Virus record (IMG/VR): IMGVR_UViG_3300013902_000013
Location: 1 to 64,000 of that record
Origin: a virus
Lineage: Duplodnaviria; Caudoviricetes
Length of the DNA stretch: 64,000 nt
Reading direction: 5' to 3' (one strand)
Shown: one piece after another, positions 639 through 63,880 of the stretch
How positions within the stretch are numbered: the first letter of the stretch is position 1
Layout of the letters: every line of letters begins with the position of its first letter
The notes under the pieces: generated by a model
Seen by the model: the letters and a program-made list of their open reading frames with translations, nothing else
What the model was told of the DNA's origin: nothing
Databases searched by the model: none
Program-made: the position numbers and the translations under genes

Positions 639-1259
639 ATGGAAACATATGGATATGCAAGAGTTAGTAGTCATGAACAGAAATTAGACAGACAGTTAAG
701 GGCACTAATTGACGCGGGAGTGGTTGAAGATCATATATTTAGTGACAAGGCCTCAGGCAAGGATTTTAACCGTCCATCTTATCAAAGGCTCATGAAGGTA
801 ATTAAAGAGGGCGATACCCTAATTATAAAATCTTTAGACAGGCTCTCGCGCCATTACGAGGAAGCGCTTCAAATGTGGTCAGAGCTAATCCAAAAGCGCC
901 ATATCCAGATAAAAGTAATTGATACACCTTTTCTTAACACTAATAATGAATTAGGTGAAATGGGAATATTTATTAACAATCTTATAGTAAATGTATTATT
1001 CTTTAGTGCTGAACAAGAGCGCAAATTCATCAAACAGCGCCAAGCAGAGGGTATTGCAATAGCGAAAGAAAAAGGAGTTGCGTTTGGGCGCCCAACTAGA
1101 AAGCTTCCAGAAAATTTTCCAATGATTTACAATCTGTGGAAAGAAGGTTATCCAATTACTGCGCTCTTGCAATTTGCTGATGGTTACTGTTATAGCACTT
1201 TGCGCAACATGTTAAGAGACCCAAAAAAATATGGTGCTGATATGGACAAATTATTATAA
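639..1259 (+). CDS. Small serine recombinase (resolvase/invertase family)
   Basis: N-terminal YGYARVSS...QKLDRQL catalytic motif, SGKDFNRP, LDRLSR, EQERKFIKQRQAEGIAIAKEKGVAFGRP and a short HTH-like C-terminus; 206 aa. Confidence 0.92.
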   Translation: METYGYARVSSHEQKLDRQLRALIDAGVVEDHIFSDKASGKDFNRPSYQRLMKVIKEGDTLIIKSLDRLSRHYEEALQMWSELIQKRHIQIKVIDTPFLNTNNELGEMGIFINNLIVNVLFFSAEQERKFIKQRQAEGIAIAKEKGVAFGRPTRKLPENFPMIYNLWKEGYPITALLQFADGYCYSTLRNMLRDPKKYGADMDKLL

Positions 1260-50279: not shown

Positions 50280-50595
50280 GCTTATTTGCCCAAAAATTTT
50301 TCGGCGCGCCGGTCCTTGCAAAAGCAGTAAGAACAGTTGCGCGCCGCAGCAAATTTGACAACACAAAAATTTTCTGCTATAATTTTGTTGTAAACAAAAA
50401 ACAAACAAAAAAAGCAAAAACTGTGTTGAGGTCTAAACCAAAACCCTTTTATAAAAACTATAAAAAATATTATATAATAAATATATAAAGAAAAAGAAAT
50501 AAAGAAATTTGGAAAAAGTAAAAATTTATGATATAATAAATATATCAATTCACTTAAAAAAGTTATTACAAAAGGAAAGGAAAAAAAAGAATAAA

Positions 50596-50883
50596 ATGAA
50601 TTTAATTAATGAAAGCGCAAGTCGAAAGATCGATGACTTAGGTAGAATAACTATTCCTAAAAATATGAGAAAAAGATTAAATGTACATTCGGGAGAGGAT
50701 TTAGATTTCTATAGTTTAGAGCATGAAGGTAAATATTATGTATGCTTAACTTCTAAGCGGAATCCGCCATCTTATAAATATAAAATAGTAACAGATATTT
50801 TTAAAGAATATAATATAGAAGTACCAAAAGAATTTTTAGATGCAATAGCAAAAGAAACATTTAAAACAAGAGAAGAAGAATAA
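50596..50883 (+). CDS. abrB: AbrB/SpoVT-family transcriptional regulator
   Basis: Start re-called to ATG 50596; SRKIDDLGRITIPKNMRKRLNVHSGEDLDFY closely follows the AbrB N-terminal DNA-binding motif (RKVDELGRVVIP.ELRR.L.I...D.LEIY). Confidence 0.8.
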   Translation: MNLINESASRKIDDLGRITIPKNMRKRLNVHSGEDLDFYSLEHEGKYYVCLTSKRNPPSYKYKIVTDIFKEYNIEVPKEFLDAIAKETFKTREEE

Positions 50884-53534: not shown

Positions 53535-53882
53535 ATGGAAAATAATAAGAATTTAATTAAATCTGTCGTACTGGCTGATTATAGCCAGTTCGTTGATGGC
53601 AAACACCGTAACGGTGGTTGCTATGGGTATGACGTGATTTACACGTATATGCCCGAACAGAACGGATTTGCTCGTGAATGGTGTACCACGTGCGAACTGA
53701 TACCAGACGCGCCAAGTGGCGTTTATTCGCTCACCGACGTGTTGAACGAAACAGCGGATTTTGTCCGCCGTCACGCTAACGAACAGGATTGTTACGTTAG
53801 CGTAAATTATACAATGGTGTGGGAGTCCACTCCATCAGAAAATACTGACATTGATATGTCAGATTGTTTTCTTGACGATTAG
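53535..53882 (+). CDS. Hypothetical early protein
   Basis: 115-aa ORF followed by a terminator hairpin at 53884-53915. Confidence 0.7.
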   Translation: MENNKNLIKSVVLADYSQFVDGKHRNGGCYGYDVIYTYMPEQNGFAREWCTTCELIPDAPSGVYSLTDVLNETADFVRRHANEQDCYVSVNYTMVWESTPSENTDIDMSDCFLDD

Positions 53883-53995
53883 AAAAATAAGGGGAACGTT
53901 TGTTCCCCTTATTTTTTTTATTTAAAACGAACAAGTGTTTGTTTCACTTGTTAGTTAGTTAGTCCTAACCAACAAACACTTGTTCTACTTTAATG

Positions 53996-54307
53996 CTTTA
54001 ATCCATTAAAGTAATTGCCCTGTACAACGATATACTTTAATACATTAAAGTATTAAAATGTTTTACAAGTGAATTATTTACTGTTCCATTTTAACGCTTT
54101 AGTGTATTAAAGTAATTGCACTCTGCAAGAGTAGGTTTAATGCTTTAGTGTAGTAAAGTATTTTACATTTCGTTTATTGAACTGTTCCACTTTAGTGTAT
54201 TAAAGTATTTTTCAAATGAAATATTGCACTGTTCCACTTTAATGCTTTAATGCGGTGAAGCAAGAAAATTATAAATCGTTGCACTTTACCACTTTAGTGT
54301 AGTGAAG
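53996..54307. repeat. Array of the CTTTA-N6-TAAAG palindrome, island 1
   Basis: Perfect copies at 53996, 54035, 54097, 54143 and 54190; near copies at 54245 and 54292. Confidence 0.9.
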
Positions 54308-54316
54308 TGCTGAAGC

Positions 54317-54366
54317 CCGAGCCAAGACGCCACATCTTTTTGGTCACTTGTTGCGTCTTGGCTCGG
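54317..54366. repeat. GC-rich hairpin, island 1
   Basis: Perfect 14-bp arms CCGAGCCAAGACGC / GCGTCTTGGCTCGG with a 22-nt loop. Confidence 0.9.
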
Positions 54367-54661
54367 CATTTAATTGAATTGTGAATTACTAAAAAATTAA
54401 TTGAAAAGTGCATAGTGCAAAAGTGAAAAGTCCAGCCCGAAACCATTCACTTATAAAACGAACGAACATATGTTCCAGTCGCATAGGTCACGAACACACG
54501 TTCATAGAACCTACGTTCTGGATACTTTTACCAGTGAACGCGCGTTCTATGTATTGAAATAAAAACATAATTATTTTCATTCCACCTATTGCAATTAATC
54601 CTATATGTGTTATAATGGTATTAAGTTAAGCGCAAGAGCGCAGAAAGTGAGGTATTTAAAA

Positions 54662-55132
54662 ATGAAAAAATTCAATATCTACTTAGATATGGATGGTACT
54701 ATTGCAAACCTTTACAATGTACCGAATTGGTTAGAAAAATTAAAAAATGAGGATACAACTCCATATGAACAAGCAGAATCCCTTGTTGATATGGAATTAT
54801 TAAGTGAATTATTAAAAAGTCCACTTGTATCGGCTAACATACTTTCATGGACTTCAAAGGGCGGCTCTATTAAATATAATCGTAAAGTTAGATATAGCAA
54901 ATTGAGATGGTTGCAGTCTCACGGTTTAGATATGCACATTATAGATAAATATATTATAGTTCCATACGGCACAAATAAAGCTGAAGCAATAGGAACAAGA
55001 TTAAATAGTTCATTTTATCTATTTGATGATGAATTAAACAATCGTTTAAATTGGATGAATGCGGGCGGTACTGCTTACGGGGCAGAAAAAATTATCGAAA
55101 AAATCAGATTTTTGCTTGACTTATATAAATGA
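54662..55132 (+). CDS. HAD-superfamily phosphatase (5'-nucleotidase-like)
   Basis: IYLDMDGTIANLY motif I, K...I, and LFDD motif IV; start re-called to ATG 54662 after a GAGGT RBS. Confidence 0.8.
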   Translation: MKKFNIYLDMDGTIANLYNVPNWLEKLKNEDTTPYEQAESLVDMELLSELLKSPLVSANILSWTSKGGSIKYNRKVRYSKLRWLQSHGLDMHIIDKYIIVPYGTNKAEAIGTRLNSSFYLFDDELNNRLNWMNAGGTAYGAEKIIEKIRFLLDLYK

Positions 55133-55210
55133 ATATGATAATATAATTACAGGAAGTTATTAAGGGCGGATACAGCAAAATCCGCCCAGTCAGAAAAGGA
55201 TGGTAAACAA

Positions 55211-55447
55211 ATGAATCTTGAAATTTTAAACATCACAGCAATTCAGATGGGCGCTCTTGTAAATGAGGGCGCCGACCACGTAACAATTATGGGGATTAAT
55301 GACCCTGTAGTTATGATTGCAATATACAAAGAAAACAAATTAGTGGTTACATATTATAGCCACGCAGTAAAAGAACACGTACTGTATACGGGTGTAACTG
55401 CTGAACCTGAAAAAATAATATGTGGTTTAATGGGAATGTTATTATAA
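55211..55447 (+). CDS. Hypothetical protein
   Basis: 78-aa ORF with RBS and an upstream promoter-like sequence. Confidence 0.65.
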   Translation: MNLEILNITAIQMGALVNEGADHVTIMGINDPVVMIAIYKENKLVVTYYSHAVKEHVLYTGVTAEPEKIICGLMGMLL

Positions 55448-55470
55448 TAGAAAAGAGAGGTATTTAAAAA

Positions 55471-55800
55471 ATGATTATCGAAACAAAAGAATTTAATAAG
55501 TTAATGGAATTAAACCCATCATGGGAGTTCTGGACAAGATTTGAAAGCACACATGCAGTTTATATAAGAATTTCTGACGTAAAATCAGAAGAATTTTTAT
55601 ATAATATTGTTATGCACGACACTTATTGTGTATTACAGGACAAAGAAGATAATATTATTTTAAAAAGTAATTTTCCGGAAATTGTAAAATATTTAACAAT
55701 GAGCAGGGAAGAATTAAAACAAGAATTAATAGAAGCAATAAACAATGAAGAATATGCAATAGCTATTGCATTAGTAAATATTTTAAGAGATGATTATTAG
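55471..55800 (+). CDS. Hypothetical protein
   Basis: 109-aa ORF with GAGGT RBS. Confidence 0.65.
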   Translation: MIIETKEFNKLMELNPSWEFWTRFESTHAVYIRISDVKSEEFLYNIVMHDTYCVLQDKEDNIILKSNFPEIVKYLTMSREELKQELIEAINNEEYAIAIALVNILRDDY

Positions 55801-55900
55801 ATAAAGAAAAATTTAAAATGAGCTTGTTAATGTTCCATTTTTTTTAAAATGAGTATTAACAAGCTCCAGTAAATAAATAAAAGAAAATTTTGAAATGAGC

Positions 55901-55929
55901 TTGACAAAGCTCCAGTAATGCGGTATAAT
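55901..55929 (+). promoter_or_regulatory. Consensus SigA promoter
   Basis: TTGACA-17 nt-TATAAT. Confidence 0.85.
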
Positions 55930-55961
55930 TAGTTATCAAATGAAACAGGAGGAATTTAAAA

Positions 55962-56264
55962 ATGAAAATCATAAATCTTACACCACACACAATCAATATT
56001 TCTGATTTGGTTATTCCATCAAGTGGAATAGCAAGAGCAAAGCAGGAAAGTAAACAGGTTGACACTATTGACGGAATACCAGTTTACAATACGGTTTATG
56101 GAGAGGTTGAAAACCTTCCAGAGCCGCAGGACGGAGTTATATACGTCGTATCTGCTTTGACTGCACAGGCAGTTCCAGACCGCAAAGACGTATATATCAC
56201 ATTCGGCGCGGTAAGAGATGAAGCCGGTAAAATTATCGGTTGCACCGGATTAGCACATATTTAA
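55962..56264 (+). CDS. Conserved-looking phage hypothetical protein
   Basis: MKIINLTPHTINI...IPSSGIAR...ENLPEPQDGVIYVVSAL.AQA..DRKD; AGGAGG RBS. Confidence 0.75.
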   Translation: MKIINLTPHTINISDLVIPSSGIARAKQESKQVDTIDGIPVYNTVYGEVENLPEPQDGVIYVVSALTAQAVPDRKDVYITFGAVRDEAGKIIGCTGLAHI

Positions 56265-56277
56265 AGGGAGGTTAAAA

Positions 56278-56532
56278 ATGAAAGGTATTTTAATGGGTTT
56301 AATATTATTAAGTTCCATCACAACAGCGCCAACTGAATACATGGTAGAAATGGAATATTACAATGACATTCCAAGCGTCGCAGGCGTTGGCGTTTTTTAC
56401 GACGGTGACACATGTTATTATTCAGTAGAAGATATTACCCTTGAAAACGAACATCGTTACATTGTCGTTTTAAACGACCAAGGAACAGCAGATAAAAACG
56501 ACGACACAATCATTCTATATTGGGAGAAATAA
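56278..56532 (+). CDS. Small exported protein, paralog of 53217-53519
   Basis: Signal-peptide-like N-terminus; AGVGVFYDG...LEN..RYIV...DDTIILYW. Confidence 0.7.
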   Translation: MKGILMGLILLSSITTAPTEYMVEMEYYNDIPSVAGVGVFYDGDTCYYSVEDITLENEHRYIVVLNDQGTADKNDDTIILYWEK

Positions 56533-56559
56533 AAAAATTAAAGATTCACATTTTAATCA

Positions 56560-57420
56560 GTTCCATGCAAGAGCAAAGATTAAAATGTGAATCTTTTTTT
56601 AAACATGTATACAAGCAAGAGCAAAGAAAACATGTATACAATCGCGCGGACGCAGCAAAATTCAACTGTTCGCGCGGTCAATTATTAGCTGTTCCACCTA
56701 TTGCGCGTGAAATAATTGATAATGTCAATAATTTCATTTGAAACAATTGCACTTTACCACTTTAGCACTTTAAAGCGTGAGCCGTGAGCCTCGCTGTGAC
56801 GTTTGCGCCCTTTGAACGTCACAGCGAGGCATTTACTTAACAAGTGAATTATCAATTTTTTAATTAACAAGTGCATAGTGAACTTGTGAATAGTTGGCGC
56901 CCGAAACTATTGACCTCTTCAAACACTTTAGCGCAGTAAAGCGTTAATGCGCTAAAGTGAAAACTATAAACTCCCTCTTCAGCACTTCACTGCGCTAAAG
57001 CGTTAATGTACTAAAGCGAAATTTAAAACATGTATACAATCATGCGGATTGTATACGATTTGAGAATTGTATACATGTTTTAAATTTCGCTTTAGTACAT
57101 TAAAGTGGAAGAGCGCAATAATCCGCAGAGTCAACGGTACGCCGGAGCATGTATACAATATGCAACATACAAAATACAATGCTCCCAAATGGAATAAAAA
57201 ACGAACTGATATGCAGAACAGTTGTTTGCCGTGCTCCCGGAGCATTTCACAAGTGAATTATTGACAAGATCAATGATCGGAGCACGGGAGCATCATTCAT
57301 TGTTTAGATCAATTATATGTATGACAATTATATCATGCTATTGCATGCTCCCGCAATAAAATTGTATTTTTGTATACGTGTATTTGAGTAGAAAAACACT
57401 TGCAATCTATCCTCCCACGG
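56560..57420. repeat. Non-coding motif island 2
   Basis: TGTATACA at 56606, 56633, 57031, 57068 and 57150; CTTTA-N6-TAAAG at 56760, 56926 and 57090 plus near copies; 16-bp hairpin at 56788-56830; GGGAGCA/TGCTCCC at 57180, 57232, 57286 and 57346. Confidence 0.85.
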
Positions 57421-57608
57421 TCTATAATATAATTGTTCTTGAGAACGGGAACACAACGGGAGTTGAAAACAAGTTTTCAAGAATGAAAAAAAGTGATTGA
57501 CAACTTACTGAAAAAGTTTTAAAATAGTAAGTGTCAAGGGAACTTGATAAAATGTTTATAAAAGTAAAGTCAGGTACAAGACTATAAAACCGAAAGGATA
57601 GGTAAATT

Positions 57609-57977
57609 ATGGTAACTAACAAGATGACACAGGTAAAAGCTTTAGCACTTGCGATTGAAGCAGTTAGAAACGGCGAAACCGTTTCTGATGAAGTTGTCAA
57701 CAAGCTTGTTGACATTAAGAACGCGCTTGAGAAAAAGGCTAATTCTACAAGTCGCAAGGCGTCAAATGCAAACGCTGAACTGTTAGAAAAGGTGCTCCCA
57801 CTGTTTACAGATGCGCCAAACACACTTACAGAGGTGCTTACTGCACATCGTGAAGAGTTTGACAAGTTAGGGATTTTGACAAGTCAGAAGTTGAACGCCG
57901 TTATCCGTCCAGCCGTGGAAGATGGTCGCATCTTCAGAGAAAAGGACGGTAAAACGACCACTTTTAAGCTTGCTTAA
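57609..57977 (+). CDS. Putative winged-helix DNA-binding protein, copy A
   Basis: C-terminal LTEVL...LTSQKLNAVIRPAVEDGRIFREKDGKTTTFKLA is wHTH-like; the C-terminal half is nearly identical to 60660-61022. Confidence 0.7.
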   Translation: MVTNKMTQVKALALAIEAVRNGETVSDEVVNKLVDIKNALEKKANSTSRKASNANAELLEKVLPLFTDAPNTLTEVLTAHREEFDKLGILTSQKLNAVIRPAVEDGRIFREKDGKTTTFKLA

Positions 57978-58037
57978 AATCGTTATTGCTTGTGAGTTGG
58001 GAGCTTTAAAGCTCCCAACGATTAAAGGACTTGCACA

Positions 58038-58427
58038 TTGAAAACAGAATACAACGAAAATCAGATTGTTAATCTGATGCAGTCGCTTGACATCTCACGC
58101 AATGAAGCAATGGAGATATTACAAGCGGATGCGGAAATTGATAAAGGCGCAAAACTGTTTGAATTGACCGCCGAACAGAAAGCCGTTGAAAAAAAGATGC
58201 GTAAAACTGTCAAGACAGTATCTCCCAACGGCAAAAAGATTCAGCGTGAATTAAAAATTGACGACAACAGAGAATTGTTGTTGACTTCAATAATTGAGTT
58301 GTTCAAGAATGAGTTTTCGATTGAAAATATCAAACGACCGCCACGCACGACAAACAAAATTCGGTTTGATTTTAATGGTGACACTTTTAATATCACTATT
58401 GCAAAGGAAAGGAAGAAAGGTAAATAA
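58038..58427 (+). CDS. Hypothetical protein, copy A of the second duplicated gene
   Basis: LDIS..EA.EI..AD.EID.GAKLFEL..EQK.VEK.MRKTVK.V.PNGKK shared with 61090-61452. Confidence 0.75.
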   Translation: MKTEYNENQIVNLMQSLDISRNEAMEILQADAEIDKGAKLFELTAEQKAVEKKMRKTVKTVSPNGKKIQRELKIDDNRELLLTSIIELFKNEFSIENIKRPPRTTNKIRFDFNGDTFNITIAKERKKGK

Positions 58428-58432
58428 TTAAA

Positions 58433-59140
58433 ATGTTTTACAATCCAGTTCAGAACAAAGATAACCGCCGTACATACTACATGGTTTTAGATACCGAAAC
58501 CGCAACATACAAAGAAAATATTAAGGCGGTCAAAGGTACAAATATGCTTGTCTATGATTTAGGCTATGCAATAGTAGACAAGAACGGGCGTATTTATGAA
58601 ACAGGTTCATACATCGTAAAAGAAATATTCTATGATGAAATAGAACGTATGAGAACGTGTTATTTTGCTGACAAGCGTACGGACTATATACAGGATATAG
58701 AATTTGGTTTACATACAGTTGTAAACTGGTCTAATCTTATGTTTCTGTTATTGGAACGTGCGGAACACTGGAACATCCGTGCAATATGCGCTTATAATGC
58801 AAAATTCGATTACGGCGCAATTTGCCGCACGAATAATTACGTTAACGGCAAATACTGGATACCACCATTGCTGAAAAAGTTTCCAACGTGGGATATTATG
58901 AAAATGGTAAAAGATACCATTTATGATAGACCTACATATCAGCAGTTCTGTTTTGATAATGGGAACCTGACGGCGCACAAACCGCCACGAGCACAGATAA
59001 AAGCCGAAACAGTAAAACAGTATCTTGATAATAATCCACTGTATGAAGAAATACATACAGGTTTAGAGGATGTTTTAATTGAATCTGAAATACTGGCTAA
59101 ATGTTTCAGCACTCACAAAAAGATGCGCCGTGAACTGTAA
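58433..59140 (+). CDS. DEDDh-family 3'-5' exonuclease
   Basis: MVLDTETA (ExoI), AYNAKFD (ExoII), HTGLEDVLIE (ExoIII). Confidence 0.85.
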   Translation: MFYNPVQNKDNRRTYYMVLDTETATYKENIKAVKGTNMLVYDLGYAIVDKNGRIYETGSYIVKEIFYDEIERMRTCYFADKRTDYIQDIEFGLHTVVNWSNLMFLLLERAEHWNIRAICAYNAKFDYGAICRTNNYVNGKYWIPPLLKKFPTWDIMKMVKDTIYDRPTYQQFCFDNGNLTAHKPPRAQIKAETVKQYLDNNPLYEEIHTGLEDVLIESEILAKCFSTHKKMRREL

Positions 59141-59213
59141 TAAATAATTAAAGTTAAAAGGTCAAGCAGTTTATTATAAACTGCTTGACTGATAGAAAAT
59201 GGGGATTTAAAAC

Positions 59214-59564
59214 ATGTTTAAAGCAGCAATAACAAATATAGCAAATATCTGTAATTATATAAATGATTTTGCACTTATTATAGATTATGCAGATAAAATC
59301 ATAAAAATAGTGGATGCAAATGAATATGAAAACGATATTATATCAATTCATTTTGTAGATGATGAGATTGAATGTTACAATGAAAAATACGTCGAATATC
59401 CTTTTATAGTAGATACTATTGAAGAATTAAATACATTCATTTGCAGAAATATTTTAACATTAGAATTTGAGATGCTTTTAGATGAAATAGATTTAAACAC
59501 AAGTAATTTTAAAGAATTGCTTGAATGTTTAGGCAAGATGAATGCTATGTATATTCTTAATTAA
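59214..59564 (+). CDS. Hypothetical acidic protein
   Basis: 116-aa ORF with RBS. Confidence 0.6.
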   Translation: MFKAAITNIANICNYINDFALIIDYADKIIKIVDANEYENDIISIHFVDDEIECYNEKYVEYPFIVDTIEELNTFICRNILTLEFEMLLDEIDLNTSNFKELLECLGKMNAMYILN

Positions 59565-59627
59565 GAATAAATAATTTACAGCTTAAGTGGCGGCTACAGC
59601 AAGCCGCCACAATAAAGGAAGTATATA

Positions 59628-59927
59628 ATGAATAAAACAGATAAATATTTAAATATTAGTAAGATAGCAGAAAAAATTGAACACATAATTAATAACAATG
59701 ATTATGATTTTGAGGTAACCGATAATTGTTTAATGGTTTGCGACAACGATACAATAATCATAATATTAACTGATAATTTTTTAAATAGTCATAACTTGAA
59801 TGATGTCATATACAATATAAAAGTTGGAATGTTAATCAATGAGATAAATATTCGTCATGACAATTATTGTCTTGACGATGAACAGGTTGACGCAATGTTA
59901 AATATTGTAACAGGATTAAACTATTAA
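59628..59927 (+). CDS. Hypothetical acidic protein
   Basis: 99-aa ORF with RBS. Confidence 0.6.
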   Translation: MNKTDKYLNISKIAEKIEHIINNNDYDFEVTDNCLMVCDNDTIIIILTDNFLNSHNLNDVIYNIKVGMLINEINIRHDNYCLDDEQVDAMLNIVTGLNY

Positions 59928-59929
59928 CA

Positions 59930-60400
59930 AGTGAAAAGTTCCCGACACTTTATCACTCTATTGCGGTAAAGCGTTGGGAGCATCGTTTTAGTCCTTTACC
60001 ACTTTACTCTATTAAAGCGGGAGCACGAACGAATGTTTGTTCGAGAGTACGAGAACACGAACAGACGTTTTAGAAAACATGCGTTCGCCGAACGGGAGCA
60101 TCGAACAGGTGTTCGCGAACAGACGTTCACAGGGAGCATGGCCTCGCTGTCACGACTGCTCTTCGTTTGTCGTGACAGCGAGGCATTTAGCTGAAACTTC
60201 ACTTGTGAATTATTTGTTTGGACAATCAAATTATTAGTATGACAATTATTTCGCCTGAAACTATTGATATATACAATAATTCACAAGAGAAGTGAAATTG
60301 TATACATGTTTTAATGCAGATCAATTGTATACAATCCGAAAATTGTATACATGTTCTTTAATCTTCTAAAAAATACAATTTTAATGCTTTAATGTGGCAA
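59930..60400. repeat. Non-coding motif island 3
   Basis: SOS boxes (perfect at 60103 and 60117; near at 60027, 60059 and 60075); GGGAGCA at 59976, 60019, 60094 and 60132; CTTTA-N6-TAAAG at 60002; 16-bp hairpin at 60141-60184; TGTATACA at 60299, 60326 and 60344. Confidence 0.85.
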
Positions 60401-60659
60401 AATATGTTAAAAATTTAACAAAAAGTATACAAAATACATAAAAAATGCACAAAATTTTTCAAAAACGCTTGCAAAACTGCAAAAAATTTGTTATTATTAT
60501 AATACAAACAAGAGGGAAAGAAAAAGAAAAAATCCTCTTCAAAAAAAATTAAAAAACCTATTGACAAACCTTCAAGCTTATGTTAATATATAAGTACAAA
60601 AGGGGAACAAAACAAAGTCAGCTGACAAAGACGTTAAAACAGAGAAAAGGAACAAATTA

Positions 60660-61022
60660 ATGGAAAAGATGACACAGAAGAAAGCAATGGAAATCACTAT
60701 CGAAGCACTTGAAGGTAAGGAAATAGTTTCAGATGAAATTATTGGCAAGCTCAAGGATATACTTACCGCACTTGAAAAGAAGAGCAAGAGCGTAAGTAAA
60801 AAGAAGAGCGAACAGAATGAGGAGCTTCTTGAAAAGGTGCTTGACCTCTTCAGCGACGCGCCAAACACGCTGACTGAAATACTGGTAGCGCACAGAGAAG
60901 AATTTGACCAGTTGGGTATTCTTACCAGTCAGAAATTAAATTCTGTAATCAGACCTGCTGTAGAGGACGGCAGACTGTTCAGAGAAAAGAACGGAAAGAC
61001 AACTACTTTTAGATTAGCTTAA
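60660..61022 (+). CDS. Putative winged-helix DNA-binding protein, copy B
   Basis: Paralog of 57609-57977. Confidence 0.7.
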   Translation: MEKMTQKKAMEITIEALEGKEIVSDEIIGKLKDILTALEKKSKSVSKKKSEQNEELLEKVLDLFSDAPNTLTEILVAHREEFDQLGILTSQKLNSVIRPAVEDGRLFREKNGKTTTFRLA

Positions 61023-61089
61023 TCAATTTAAATGTCAAACAACCTGGGGCAAGTTTTTAGCTTGCCCCATTTTAAACAAGAGGTGAATT

Positions 61090-61452
61090 ATGAACAAAGA
61101 AATTGAAAAGTTAATGAAAACACTTGACATTTCAGAAGAGGAAGCGCGAGAAATAATTGAAGCTGACAAAGAAATTGACCGCGGCGCGAAGCTGTTTGAA
61201 CTTTCAGACGAACAAAAGAAAGTTGAAAAACAGATGCGTAAAACTGTAAAAATTGTTGCACCAAACGGTAAAAAGACAGAGCGCCCACTTAAAATAGACC
61301 CAACGCGCGAAAGCCTAATGCAGGCTATCACAGACGCGTTAAAAGACCGCACAGACGCAATCACGCGCCCGGAAAAGACAACAAACACATTGTTATTAGA
61401 TATTGGCGCGGATACATTTAAAATAGTTGTTTCAAAGATACGCAAAAAATAA
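61090..61452 (+). CDS. Hypothetical protein, copy B
   Basis: Paralog of 58038-58427. Confidence 0.75.
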   Translation: MNKEIEKLMKTLDISEEEAREIIEADKEIDRGAKLFELSDEQKKVEKQMRKTVKIVAPNGKKTERPLKIDPTRESLMQAITDALKDRTDAITRPEKTTNTLLLDIGADTFKIVVSKIRKK

Positions 61453-63272: not shown

Positions 63273-63842
63273 ATGGCACATAATTGGAAGTGGTACGTAG
63301 AAAATAACGATTTTGAAGGATGCTTAGAAAGATTTAATGCGGCAACCAAAAATTGGAAAGAACATTGGTTTAGTACATTAGAAGATATATATAATAATTG
63401 TAAAGATTGGTCAAAAAAATATATTCTTGACCCCGTAGAAATGGTAGTTATAACCATTTCAGATTGTATTAAAAAAACAAGTAAAAAAATACAAAATCTT
63501 GTAAATGGTGCGAATAGTCACACATATTTAATAAACATGTATGATAAAGAGGACAATTTGGTTTTTACAAAAATTGGTAAAGCAGATAATATTAACAAAA
63601 GATTCGGTGCGCTTGAGCGCCAGTATTACGCCACACAAGATGTGCAGATTGCGCATGTAAAACCTATTCATATATTTAATGTCAAAAATGATGACCTTGC
63701 GCAAGTATTAGAATCGTTTATCAGAAATTTATTCCGTAAAACACATGAATTTATTCCAAACGATAGATTTAAACCATTTGAACCATCAGAAGAGGAATGG
63801 AAAGAAATGGAAAGATATTATAAATTAGTGTGTGCAGAATAA
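63273..63842 (+). CDS. GIY-YIG-like (T5orf172-type) protein
   Basis: HTYLINMY...FTKIGKADNINKRF...E..I...F pattern in the C-terminal half. Confidence 0.6.
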   Translation: MAHNWKWYVENNDFEGCLERFNAATKNWKEHWFSTLEDIYNNCKDWSKKYILDPVEMVVITISDCIKKTSKKIQNLVNGANSHTYLINMYDKEDNLVFTKIGKADNINKRFGALERQYYATQDVQIAHVKPIHIFNVKNDDLAQVLESFIRNLFRKTHEFIPNDRFKPFEPSEEEWKEMERYYKLVCAE

Positions 63843-63851
63843 AAAAAGGGG

Positions 63852-63880
63852 TTGACAAGTTCAATTCCTTGAGGTATAAT
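63852..63880 (+). promoter_or_regulatory. Consensus SigA promoter
   Basis: TTGACA-17 nt-TATAAT. Confidence 0.85.

Follow-up and report, generated by a model that had tools for sequence, protein, structure and literature searches.

The window analysed here is a stretch of 64,000 nucleotides, positions 1 to 64,000 of the IMG/VR virus record IMGVR_UViG_3300013902_000013 (Duplodnaviria; Caudoviricetes). Three homologous gene-free islands interrupt its early arm (islands 1 to 3). A fourth homologous island lies in the same record past the window, in addition to the three described in an earlier note on this DNA. The islands may well be control modules made of terminators, operator arrays and promoters, which would tie the early operons to phage regulators and to the state of the host; on the sequence evidence, this reading is given about an even chance. 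As the earlier note had proposed, the islands are functional non-coding DNA of clustered operator-like palindromes, and their motifs are kept in related phages, contrary to what the note had named as a refutation. The positions of the islands and of their parts are listed in Table 1.

The four islands take up 3184 of the 75813 bases of the record (4.2%), within 11 kb. All 12 CTTTA-N6-TAAAG sites of the record lie inside them (binomial p=3e-17), and so do all nine GAAC-N4-GTTC sites (binomial p=4e-13), eight of the ten TGTATACA sites (binomial p=4e-10), 8/12 of the GGGAGCA/TGCTCCC sites and the three copies of GGCATTTA. One of the nine GAAC palindromes, at 53894, is merely the stem of a terminator. 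The local bursts of short motifs noticed earlier are clustered far above chance. The three gene-free blocks are also present, with limits longer than first given, since promoters and leaders are included here. Both the exact 19-mer common to islands 1 and 2 and the 12-mer common to them (AAGTGCATAGTG, at 54406 and 56869) were found. The GAAC-N4-GTT(C/T) arrays occur in islands 1, 3 and 4. The TGTATACA sites are grouped as pairs and triplets in islands 2 and 3, and the GGGAGCA repeats are likewise found in these two. The CTTTA array of island 1 belongs to a 30-nt repeat family with eight copies, seven of them within 53989..54314; the CTTTA sites of island 2 lie as inverted pairs. Motif order and orientation vary from island to island.

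Islands 2 and 3 are each followed first by a gene for protein A. Metagenomes contain 153 homologs of this protein, and their contigs reach 140 kb. In all, nine related phage loci from metagenomes have these islands. Eight related loci were chosen through this protein: L125-L130 (76-80% identity) and L136-L137 (43%). All eight show the gene order and the gene-free gaps of the window, and gene callers find no gene in the gaps. Relatives with a protein A of 75-98% identity have retained the islands, the motif classes and the class order, and so has one at 43%. Sliding identity is 90-94% in the central 700 bp of island 2 (56.5-57.2 kb), 90-93% in the island-1 core and 86-92% in the right half of island 3. 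The genes adjoining the islands are only 70-82% identical, and several inter-island gene cassettes have no counterpart at all. The islands are better conserved than the genes that flank them. In the distant locus L136, the island-1 hairpin is ~95% identical, loop included; CCCGAAACTA is retained in 3/3 cores and CCCGAAACTATT in 2/3; and the terminators, the promoters and the gene-A leader are retained. In island 2 of L136, the TGTATACA sites are up from 5-6 to 8, and the CTTTA sites are down to one single-mismatch site. In island 1 of the closer relatives, 8-11 one-mismatch boxes over ~450 bp replace the four perfect LexA-type boxes. Constant classes with a fluid copy number suggest the behaviour of binding-site arrays.

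The central hairpin of the islands is conserved in a different manner, as a structure. Islands 1 to 3 each contain a GC-rich hairpin with a stem of 14-17 bp, a folding energy (dG) of -31 to -37 kcal/mol and a z score of -5.8 to -6.8 against shuffled sequences. Judged as intrinsic terminators, the GC hairpins are stable GC-rich stem-loops (stems 14-18 bp, dG -28 to -40 kcal/mol) with conserved pairing. Each hairpin is followed by ATTTA, GTGAATTA and CCNGAAAC. The core unit, which starts 60 nt ahead of ATTTA and stops 12 nt after CCNGAAAC, is 151-152 nt long in 19 of 19 copies, whatever the island type. A GC hairpin with trailing boxes in each island had been described before and was found again, but the trailing GGCATTTA is not constant and varies in relatives as GGGATTTA and GACATTTA.

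Nine distinct hairpin variants of islands 2 and 3 were compared, and pairs 1-14 are never broken in them. Six of the 17 pairs (1, 2, 12, 15, 16 and 17) are altered on both sides, for example from GC to CG, CG to TA, or AT to CG to TA. The island-3 hairpin of the window has a further GC-to-CG swap at pair 11, and orthologs also differ at the stem base by double substitutions. The covarying pairs were counted on hairpin variants of equal length; MAFFT misaligned the paralogous stems. These compensated changes suggest selection on pairing, not on sequence. The perfect 38-bp inverted repeat of island 2 shows single changes in L125, L126 and L128 that affect one arm and have no counterpart in the other, which suggests a symmetric set of sites rather than a fold. 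Island 3 of L136 has no GC hairpin at the usual spot just upstream of AAGTGAATTA but a 21-bp AT-rich one, with a run of seven T after it. This replacement at the same spot suggests a terminator-type role for the GC hairpins. They are trailed by AUUUA alone, with no longer U run, and a terminator scan accepts the island-2 hairpin as terminator-like. The central hairpin behaves as a terminator-type structure would, and not as an operator.

The hairpin covaries as an RNA or single-strand structure would, and its distance to the next box is fixed. Smaller GC hairpins without a T run also stand between the early genes. The islands might thus encode structured non-coding RNAs, or RNA-processing sites such as RNase III sites in read-through early transcripts, but this is very unlikely. 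No Rfam 15 family matched at gathering score anywhere in the record, window included, and at E up to 1 only chance microRNA-type matches on palindromes were obtained. RNAalifold recovered four pairs only from the 19 cores, with no consensus fold beyond the hairpin. No convincing promoter was found upstream of the hairpins. The half-sites of the palindromes are conserved in sequence and do not covary, the 38-bp repeat is uncompensated, and an RNA element is also hard to reconcile with the variable motif order and orientation. Several other candidates for the islands and their cores were rejected. A sigma-A-type promoter within the core was dropped because its hexamers vary between paralogs and in L136. 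An extracytoplasmic function (ECF)-type -35 element in CGAAAC was dropped for want of a CGT-type -10 element at the proper distance. A rolling-circle nick site in the hairpin loop was dropped because the loops differ between islands. Small open reading frames were dropped because they have 1- and 8-nt indels in relatives and no gene is called in the eight contigs.

Some of the palindromes resemble operators of host regulators. In Bacillus the LexA operator reads GAAC-N4-GTTC, and in clostridia GAAC-N4-GTT(T/C) (PMC4234289). The GAAC-N4-GTT(C/T) class of the islands matches this consensus, and its members are candidate host-LexA sites. The earlier proposal that at least one motif equals a host repressor operator is borne out in this respect. 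With at most one mismatch to this Gram-positive operator palindrome, 18 of the 34 LexA-type sites of the record lie inside the islands, in 4.2% of the sequence. Most LexA-type boxes stand off the sigma-A-type promoters, 40-500 bp upstream, so that the simple case of one operator for one promoter does not suffice, in line with the earlier note. The relatives have 13-20 LexA-type sites per 20-kb locus, of which 85-90% are in islands in the six closer ones and 7/12 in L136. Islands 3 and 4 share the same arrangement, in which a pair of perfect boxes abuts at 14-bp spacing. The Rex operator is TTGTTAA-N4-TTAACAA in clostridia and TTGTGAA-W4-TTCACAA in bacilli (PMC5367854, PMC2883068). The Rex box of island 3 is a perfect clostridial-type box in L125, L126, L127 and L130, and differs from that consensus at one position in L129 and in the window (60404). 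One such box is present per genome in the lineage of the window, a number compatible with chance for the window alone.

Equivalent islands were also found in the cultured Enterococcus faecium phage H1 (OP534061.1, 138 kb), whose proteins are 33-47% identical to those of the window phage. One island of 0.8 kb lies upstream of a HAD-type gene and one of 1 kb at the late/early divergence (L133:6794-7611 and L181:6555-7535). All seven Rex-type boxes of the H1 genome lie in these two islands; they are of the bacillus type (16-nt core TGTGAA-N4-TTCACA, at most one mismatch). Three of the five cre-type sites (optimal palindrome) are in the islands, and all five are in the early region at 91.0-100.4 kb. 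Reversed-pattern controls gave zero matches for both the Rex and the cre counts. The 11-mer GTGTTATTTTA occurs many times in the H1 islands, which also have a central GC hairpin with ATTTTAC after it. The H1 islands suggest that the architecture is old in the clade, that the motif sets are lineage-specific, and that operators of global host regulators are a recurring ingredient. No cre sites were found in the window phage.

The abundance of such sites is also what would be expected of a transcription-factor decoy or sponge, in which the arrays soak up host global regulators as the phage DNA replicates and thereby derepress host regulons. The sites far exceed the need of a promoter, with the 18 LexA-type sites in four islands and the 13-20 per related locus. 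Most sites are off the promoters, the site number varies freely among relatives, and consensus-quality operators of three global regulators are found in the islands of two host lineages. However, promoters and terminators are tied to every island in a fixed order, and the spacers and the fixed-length core, needless for a pure sponge, are as conserved as the sites. CTTTA-N6-TAAAG and TGTATACA, the most numerous palindromes, match no nameable host operator, and the Rex-type box occurs only once per genome in this lineage. A sponge is therefore quite improbable. There is a similarly small chance that the islands are dedicated titration loci, in which dozens of consensus operators per ~140-kb genome copy would soak up LexA or, in the Enterococcus relatives, Rex and CcpA. 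Host regulons for SOS, redox and carbon would then be turned on without a protein effector, and the same DNA would act as a multi-signal sensor for the early promoters.

The arrangement of the parts argues for transcriptional control modules. Islands 1 to 3 end in consensus-like promoters. In the relatives, one TGTATACA site overlaps the start site of the island-1 promoter, and another lies ~20 bp upstream of the -35 hexamer of the first island-2 promoter (P1). Such promoters, with TGTATACA sites at or over them and further clusters at a distance, suggest a looping-repressor layout. The control-module reading is preferred because of the fixed order of the parts, the promoters at the right edge, the TGTATACA sites near them, and the precedent of SPbeta-like phages, in which dispersed repressor sites are combined with LexA-controlled genes (PMC10516654; bioRxiv 10.1101/2025.11.27.690993). 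The islands would be paralogous intergenic modules that separate and insulate consecutive early operons. Each module would combine one or more terminators of the upstream operon, including the structurally conserved GC hairpin, with a fixed-length AT-rich core that ends in CCCGAAACTATT, palindromic operator arrays for at least three different dimeric DNA-binding proteins, and one or two strong sigma-A-type promoters at the right edge. Proteins bound at promoter-proximal and distal sites might form a higher-order, probably looped complex, which would set the activity of the early promoters. Early transcription would then depend on phage regulators and on the SOS and redox state of the host, with LexA, and perhaps Rex, as inputs. 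The CTTTA-N6-TAAAG, TGTATACA and GGGAGCA classes probably belong to phage-encoded or other host regulators. From the clustering, conservation, covariation, promoter positions and consensus matches observed, we infer these binders and a transcriptional output. The first gene of the early arm (window 50509-50883) encodes an AbrB/MazE/SpoVT-type protein (Pfam PF04014, E 6e-7), and the relatives have a second AbrB-type copy just ahead of island 4. The AbrB-type protein is a candidate binder of one site class.

Several observations weigh against the control-module reading. Between the LexA-type boxes and the predicted promoters downstream lie 42-125 bp in island 1 and 340-440 bp in island 3, and most LexA-type and CTTTA sites do not cover a promoter but stand 40-900 bp upstream of it. 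A weak TTCACT-17-TATGTT over the box at 54464 is the sole sigma-A-type candidate to overlap a LexA box, and it is not convincing. Over the divergence sampled, the islands are conserved as a whole, spacers included, and a comparison of motifs with spacers discriminates in L136 only. The AbrB/MazE-type protein is the sole recognisable DNA-binding candidate in the sequenced 49% of the genome. At L129:11942-12475, the counterpart of window 59928-60659, island 3 is without its LexA array, the hairpin's left arm and most of its core. Barring an assembly artefact, this central part of the island is dispensable.

A structural role of the DNA was considered as well. The islands might be replication origins, partition sites, or a T5-like signal for injection pausing or membrane anchoring. 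Phage T5 has its injection-stop region in the terminal repeat, which enters the cell first, and a set series of eight DnaA boxes defines it (bioRxiv 10.1101/866236). The islands resemble the T5 repeat regions as large untranslated early stretches with direct and inverted repeats, palindromes, family-wide conservation and an unsettled function. A hairpin, a fixed-length AT-rich stretch and iteron-like arrays at 46-55 bp spacing would also suit such a role. The head of the late operon, which contains the terminase genes, is 270 bp from the start of the early arm, so the early arm may be near a genome end. Unlike the T5 region, the islands have other motifs and no DnaA boxes: none of the 27 TTATCCACA sites of the record (at most one mismatch) lies inside them. 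Four copies in 11 kb would be odd for origins, no recognisable replication-initiator gene adjoins the islands, and the GC skew merely tracks the direction of transcription. A structural role is thus unlikely.

The islands might also be mobile regulatory cassettes or recombination linkers, that is, homology blocks for the exchange, duplication and loss of gene cassettes. T4-type phages have promoter-stem-loop cassettes of a similar kind. The gene content between islands varies while the islands are 86-94% identical. The gene pairs A1/B1 and A2/B2, which follow islands 2 and 3, are paralogous, which suggests that an island with genes A and B is a duplicated segment; L136 has one A/B pair only. 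A hybrid core was found at L146:3727-3869 (metagenome contig ULYM01046403.1), in which an island-1-type hairpin with its upstream CTTTA array is joined to an island-2-type downstream half. Such a core would be expected if islands 1 and 2 had recombined and the intervening genes had been lost. The deletion inside island 3 of L129 is a further case of loss. The earlier note had offered an origin or recombination role as an alternative. The recombination part gains one support from the L146 hybrid. However, recombination is a possible by-product of any repeat, and it leaves the palindrome arrays, the host-operator matches and the compensated hairpin unexplained. As the account of what the islands are, this alternative is rather unlikely; it is compatible with the control-module reading and does not exclude it.

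Table 1. Gene-free islands, their parts from left to right, and the first genes after islands 2 and 3. Positions are those of the window unless marked as record positions; a dot marks features given no strand.
Feature	Position	Strand	Remarks
Island 1	53883..54661	+	gene-free block from the stop of gene 53535-53882 to the ATG at 54662
Intrinsic terminator of upstream operon, island 1	53886..53921	+	canonical; stem is a GAAC-N4-GTTC palindrome, then T run
CTTTA-N6-TAAAG array, island 1	53989..54314	.	5 perfect and 3 one-mismatch sites, spacing 46-55 bp
GC-rich hairpin, island 1	54317..54366	+	14-bp stem and 3-bp extension, 22-nt loop
AT-rich core, island 1	54367..54450	+	fixed length; ATTTA, GTGAATTA, AAGTGCATAGTG, CCCGAAAC
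LexA-type boxes, island 1	54464..54547	.	four perfect GAAC-N4-GTTC at 54464, 54492, 54507, 54536
Putative sigma-A-type promoter, island 1	54589..54616	+	TTGCAA, 16 nt, TATAAT, TG upstream; serves operon from 54662; kept in L136
Island 2	56533..57608	+	gene-free block
Terminator of upstream operon, island 2	56540..56603	+	AT-rich 19-bp stem and T run
Distal TGTATACA operator pair, island 2	56606..56640	.	
GC-rich hairpin, island 2	56788..56830	+	17-bp stem
Core, island 2	56831..56915	+	fixed length; CCCGAAACTATT at end
CTTTA-N6-TAAAG group and inverted repeat, island 2	56926..57105	.	perfect 38-bp repeat 57003-57040 / 57066-57103, bears TGTATACA sites
Mixed sites, island 2	57150..57352	.	TGTATACA site; four GGGAGCA/TGCTCCC; GAAC-N4-GTTT box at 57216; GTGAATTA copy at 57253
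Putative tandem sigma-A-type promoters, island 2	57400..57525	+	P1 57400-57428; P2 57497-57525 (11/12 matches), P2 within inverted repeat
Genes A1 (122 aa) and B1 (129 aa), first after island 2	57609..58427	+	
Island 3	59928..60659	+	gene-free block; left edge without separate terminator
Two CTTTA-type sites, GGGAGCA after each, island 3	59948..60025	.	
LexA-type array, island 3	60027..60128	.	two perfect boxes, 60103 and 60117, abutting at 14 bp, and four GTTT/AAAC variants
GC-rich hairpin, island 3	60141..60184	+	16-bp stem
Core, island 3	60185..60270	+	fixed length; CCTGAAACTATT at end
Three TGTATACA operators, island 3	60299..60351	.	
Rex box, clostridial-type, island 3	60404..60421	.	one mismatch; ends 48 bp upstream of P1 -35 hexamer
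Putative tandem sigma-A-type promoters, island 3	60469..60589	+	P1 60469-60497; P2 60561-60589
Genes A2 and B2, first after island 3	60660..61452	+	paralogs: A1/A2 71%, B1/B2 56% identity
Island 4	record 64610-65206 (L135:610-1206)		beyond window; homologous to islands 1-3

In island 4, GAAC palindromes form a terminator, and the island also has CTTTA-N6-TAAAG sites, three in number, and a pair of perfect LexA-type boxes that abut. Next come a 9-bp hairpin and AATTTTCC, and then ~300 nt of GC-rich sequence with repeats of the CATAGCGCG type. The repeat number in this GC-rich block differs among relatives, long stretches of it are identical in L136, and it has no Rfam match. Consensus early promoters were found within short inverted repeats at window 55893-55929, 57497-57537 and 63840-63880, and at record 64215-64250. 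The early promoters and stem-loops overlap there, as in a stem containing the -35 TTGACA. Small GC-rich hairpins without a T run lie between early genes, just before ribosome-binding sites, and have an ACAGCAA loop in common (window 55160-55185 and 59587-59610; record 65135-65160). These hairpins may be a family of RNA-stabilising or processing elements.

The proteins encoded next to the islands gave few leads. The C-terminus of protein A has a helix-helix-helix-strand-strand order, and the named atlas clusters closest to the protein all belong to winged-helix families. Protein A is possibly a winged-helix protein, which would be a weak point in favour of the control-module reading; the AlphaFold models of proteins A and B are of low confidence (pLDDT 52 and 60). 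Sequence searches of the PDB with proteins A and B returned nothing, and searches of Pfam and PHROGs named almost none of the genes neighbouring the islands. No match to the PF00589 integrase fold, of which MrpR is a divergent member, was found in the record, which is 49% complete. A small serine recombinase (Resolvase domain, E 3e-31) is encoded at window 639-1259, beside the tail-fibre region, with the role of an invertase likelier than that of an integrase.

The record is 75.8 kb long, and its first 64 kb make up the window. It is a linear fragment with no repeats at its ends, and CheckV puts its completeness at 49%. Long structural genes occupy the minus strand from ~50.2 kb down to 5 kb, and small genes occupy the plus strand from 50.5 kb on. 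With the terminases of a human-faecal phage contig and of the Enterococcus phages H1, EF1/EF5 and VRE9 (134-142 kb), the large terminase shares 46-54% identity. More distant kin are found in Geobacillus E3, Brevibacillus Sundance (annotated YonF) and Bacillus SPbeta-like phages. A YonG_N domain is present on related contigs. Together, the YonF-like terminase kinship and the YonG_N domain suggest that the phage is an SPbeta-like large siphovirus with the islands in its early arm. It is probably a gut Firmicutes phage. No copy of it was found among the genomes of 185,579 prokaryote species, one genome each, by a protein scan and by an invariant 31-mer for prophage copies. Protein-based scans of IMG/VR and GTDB genomes found no relatives, GenBank phages gave no match at the DNA level, and a loose two-box DNA pattern gave only chance matches in viral contigs. 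A pattern scan of metagenomes gave 40 matches, ten of them true relatives. In the related phage Phass-1 (OQ749652.1, genetic code 15), at least eight A-tract units phased at 10-11 bp lie at L134:11883-12003, in a 1.4-kb gene-free gap. These phased A-tracts are a signature of intrinsically bent DNA.

Among the closest known systems is the SPbeta repeated element (SPBRE), one motif of 15-24 bp that occurs about once in each of about ten promoters. Its binding protein is the master repressor MrpR/YopR/SroF, and LexA controls the antirepressor of these phages, Sar (PMC10516654; bioRxiv 10.1101/2025.11.27.690993). Both systems belong to large SPbeta-like siphoviruses (YonG_N, YonF-like terminase), and both have conserved intergenic non-coding elements before early genes. 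In both, host LexA boxes may bring the SOS signal into the phage programme; those of the islands are candidate boxes by sequence match. However, the islands contain at least four motif classes, in arrays of up to 8-11 sites, within four islands of ~1 kb with a hairpin core. They are not a single element dispersed over about ten promoters, and are set apart by this description of SPBRE, not by motif alignment. Other early control regions also contain operators of host regulators, such as the LexA boxes of Bacillus phage GIL01 and the Spo0A boxes of phi29. The islands share with these the consensus operators of global host regulators in an early region. There, one or a few boxes lie over promoters, whereas the arrays of the islands lie mostly upstream and are mixed with other site classes. 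The E. coli datA locus is a chromosomal cluster of DnaA boxes that titrates DnaA independently of neighbouring promoters. Like datA, the islands are a cluster of sites beyond the need of any promoter, but unlike datA they are wired to terminators and promoters.

The ingredients of the islands, namely LexA boxes, dispersed phage operators, terminators and early promoters, are known, while their assembly was not described in the papers found. This assembly consists of kb-sized, multi-class islands with a fixed hairpin core, which are conserved better than genes and occur four per genome and across host lineages. Non-coding modules of this size that outconserve their neighbour genes are rare in phages, and no function has been described for these. 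The islands recur in a widespread family of gut phages of ~130-140 kb, and versions with other motifs in cultured Enterococcus phages make experiments possible. If the arrays bind LexA, Rex or CcpA, a large phage would read or rewire the DNA-damage, redox and carbon status of its host through DNA alone. In that case, the islands might also bear on the T5 repeat regions and on the coupling of induction to the SOS response in SPbeta-like phages.

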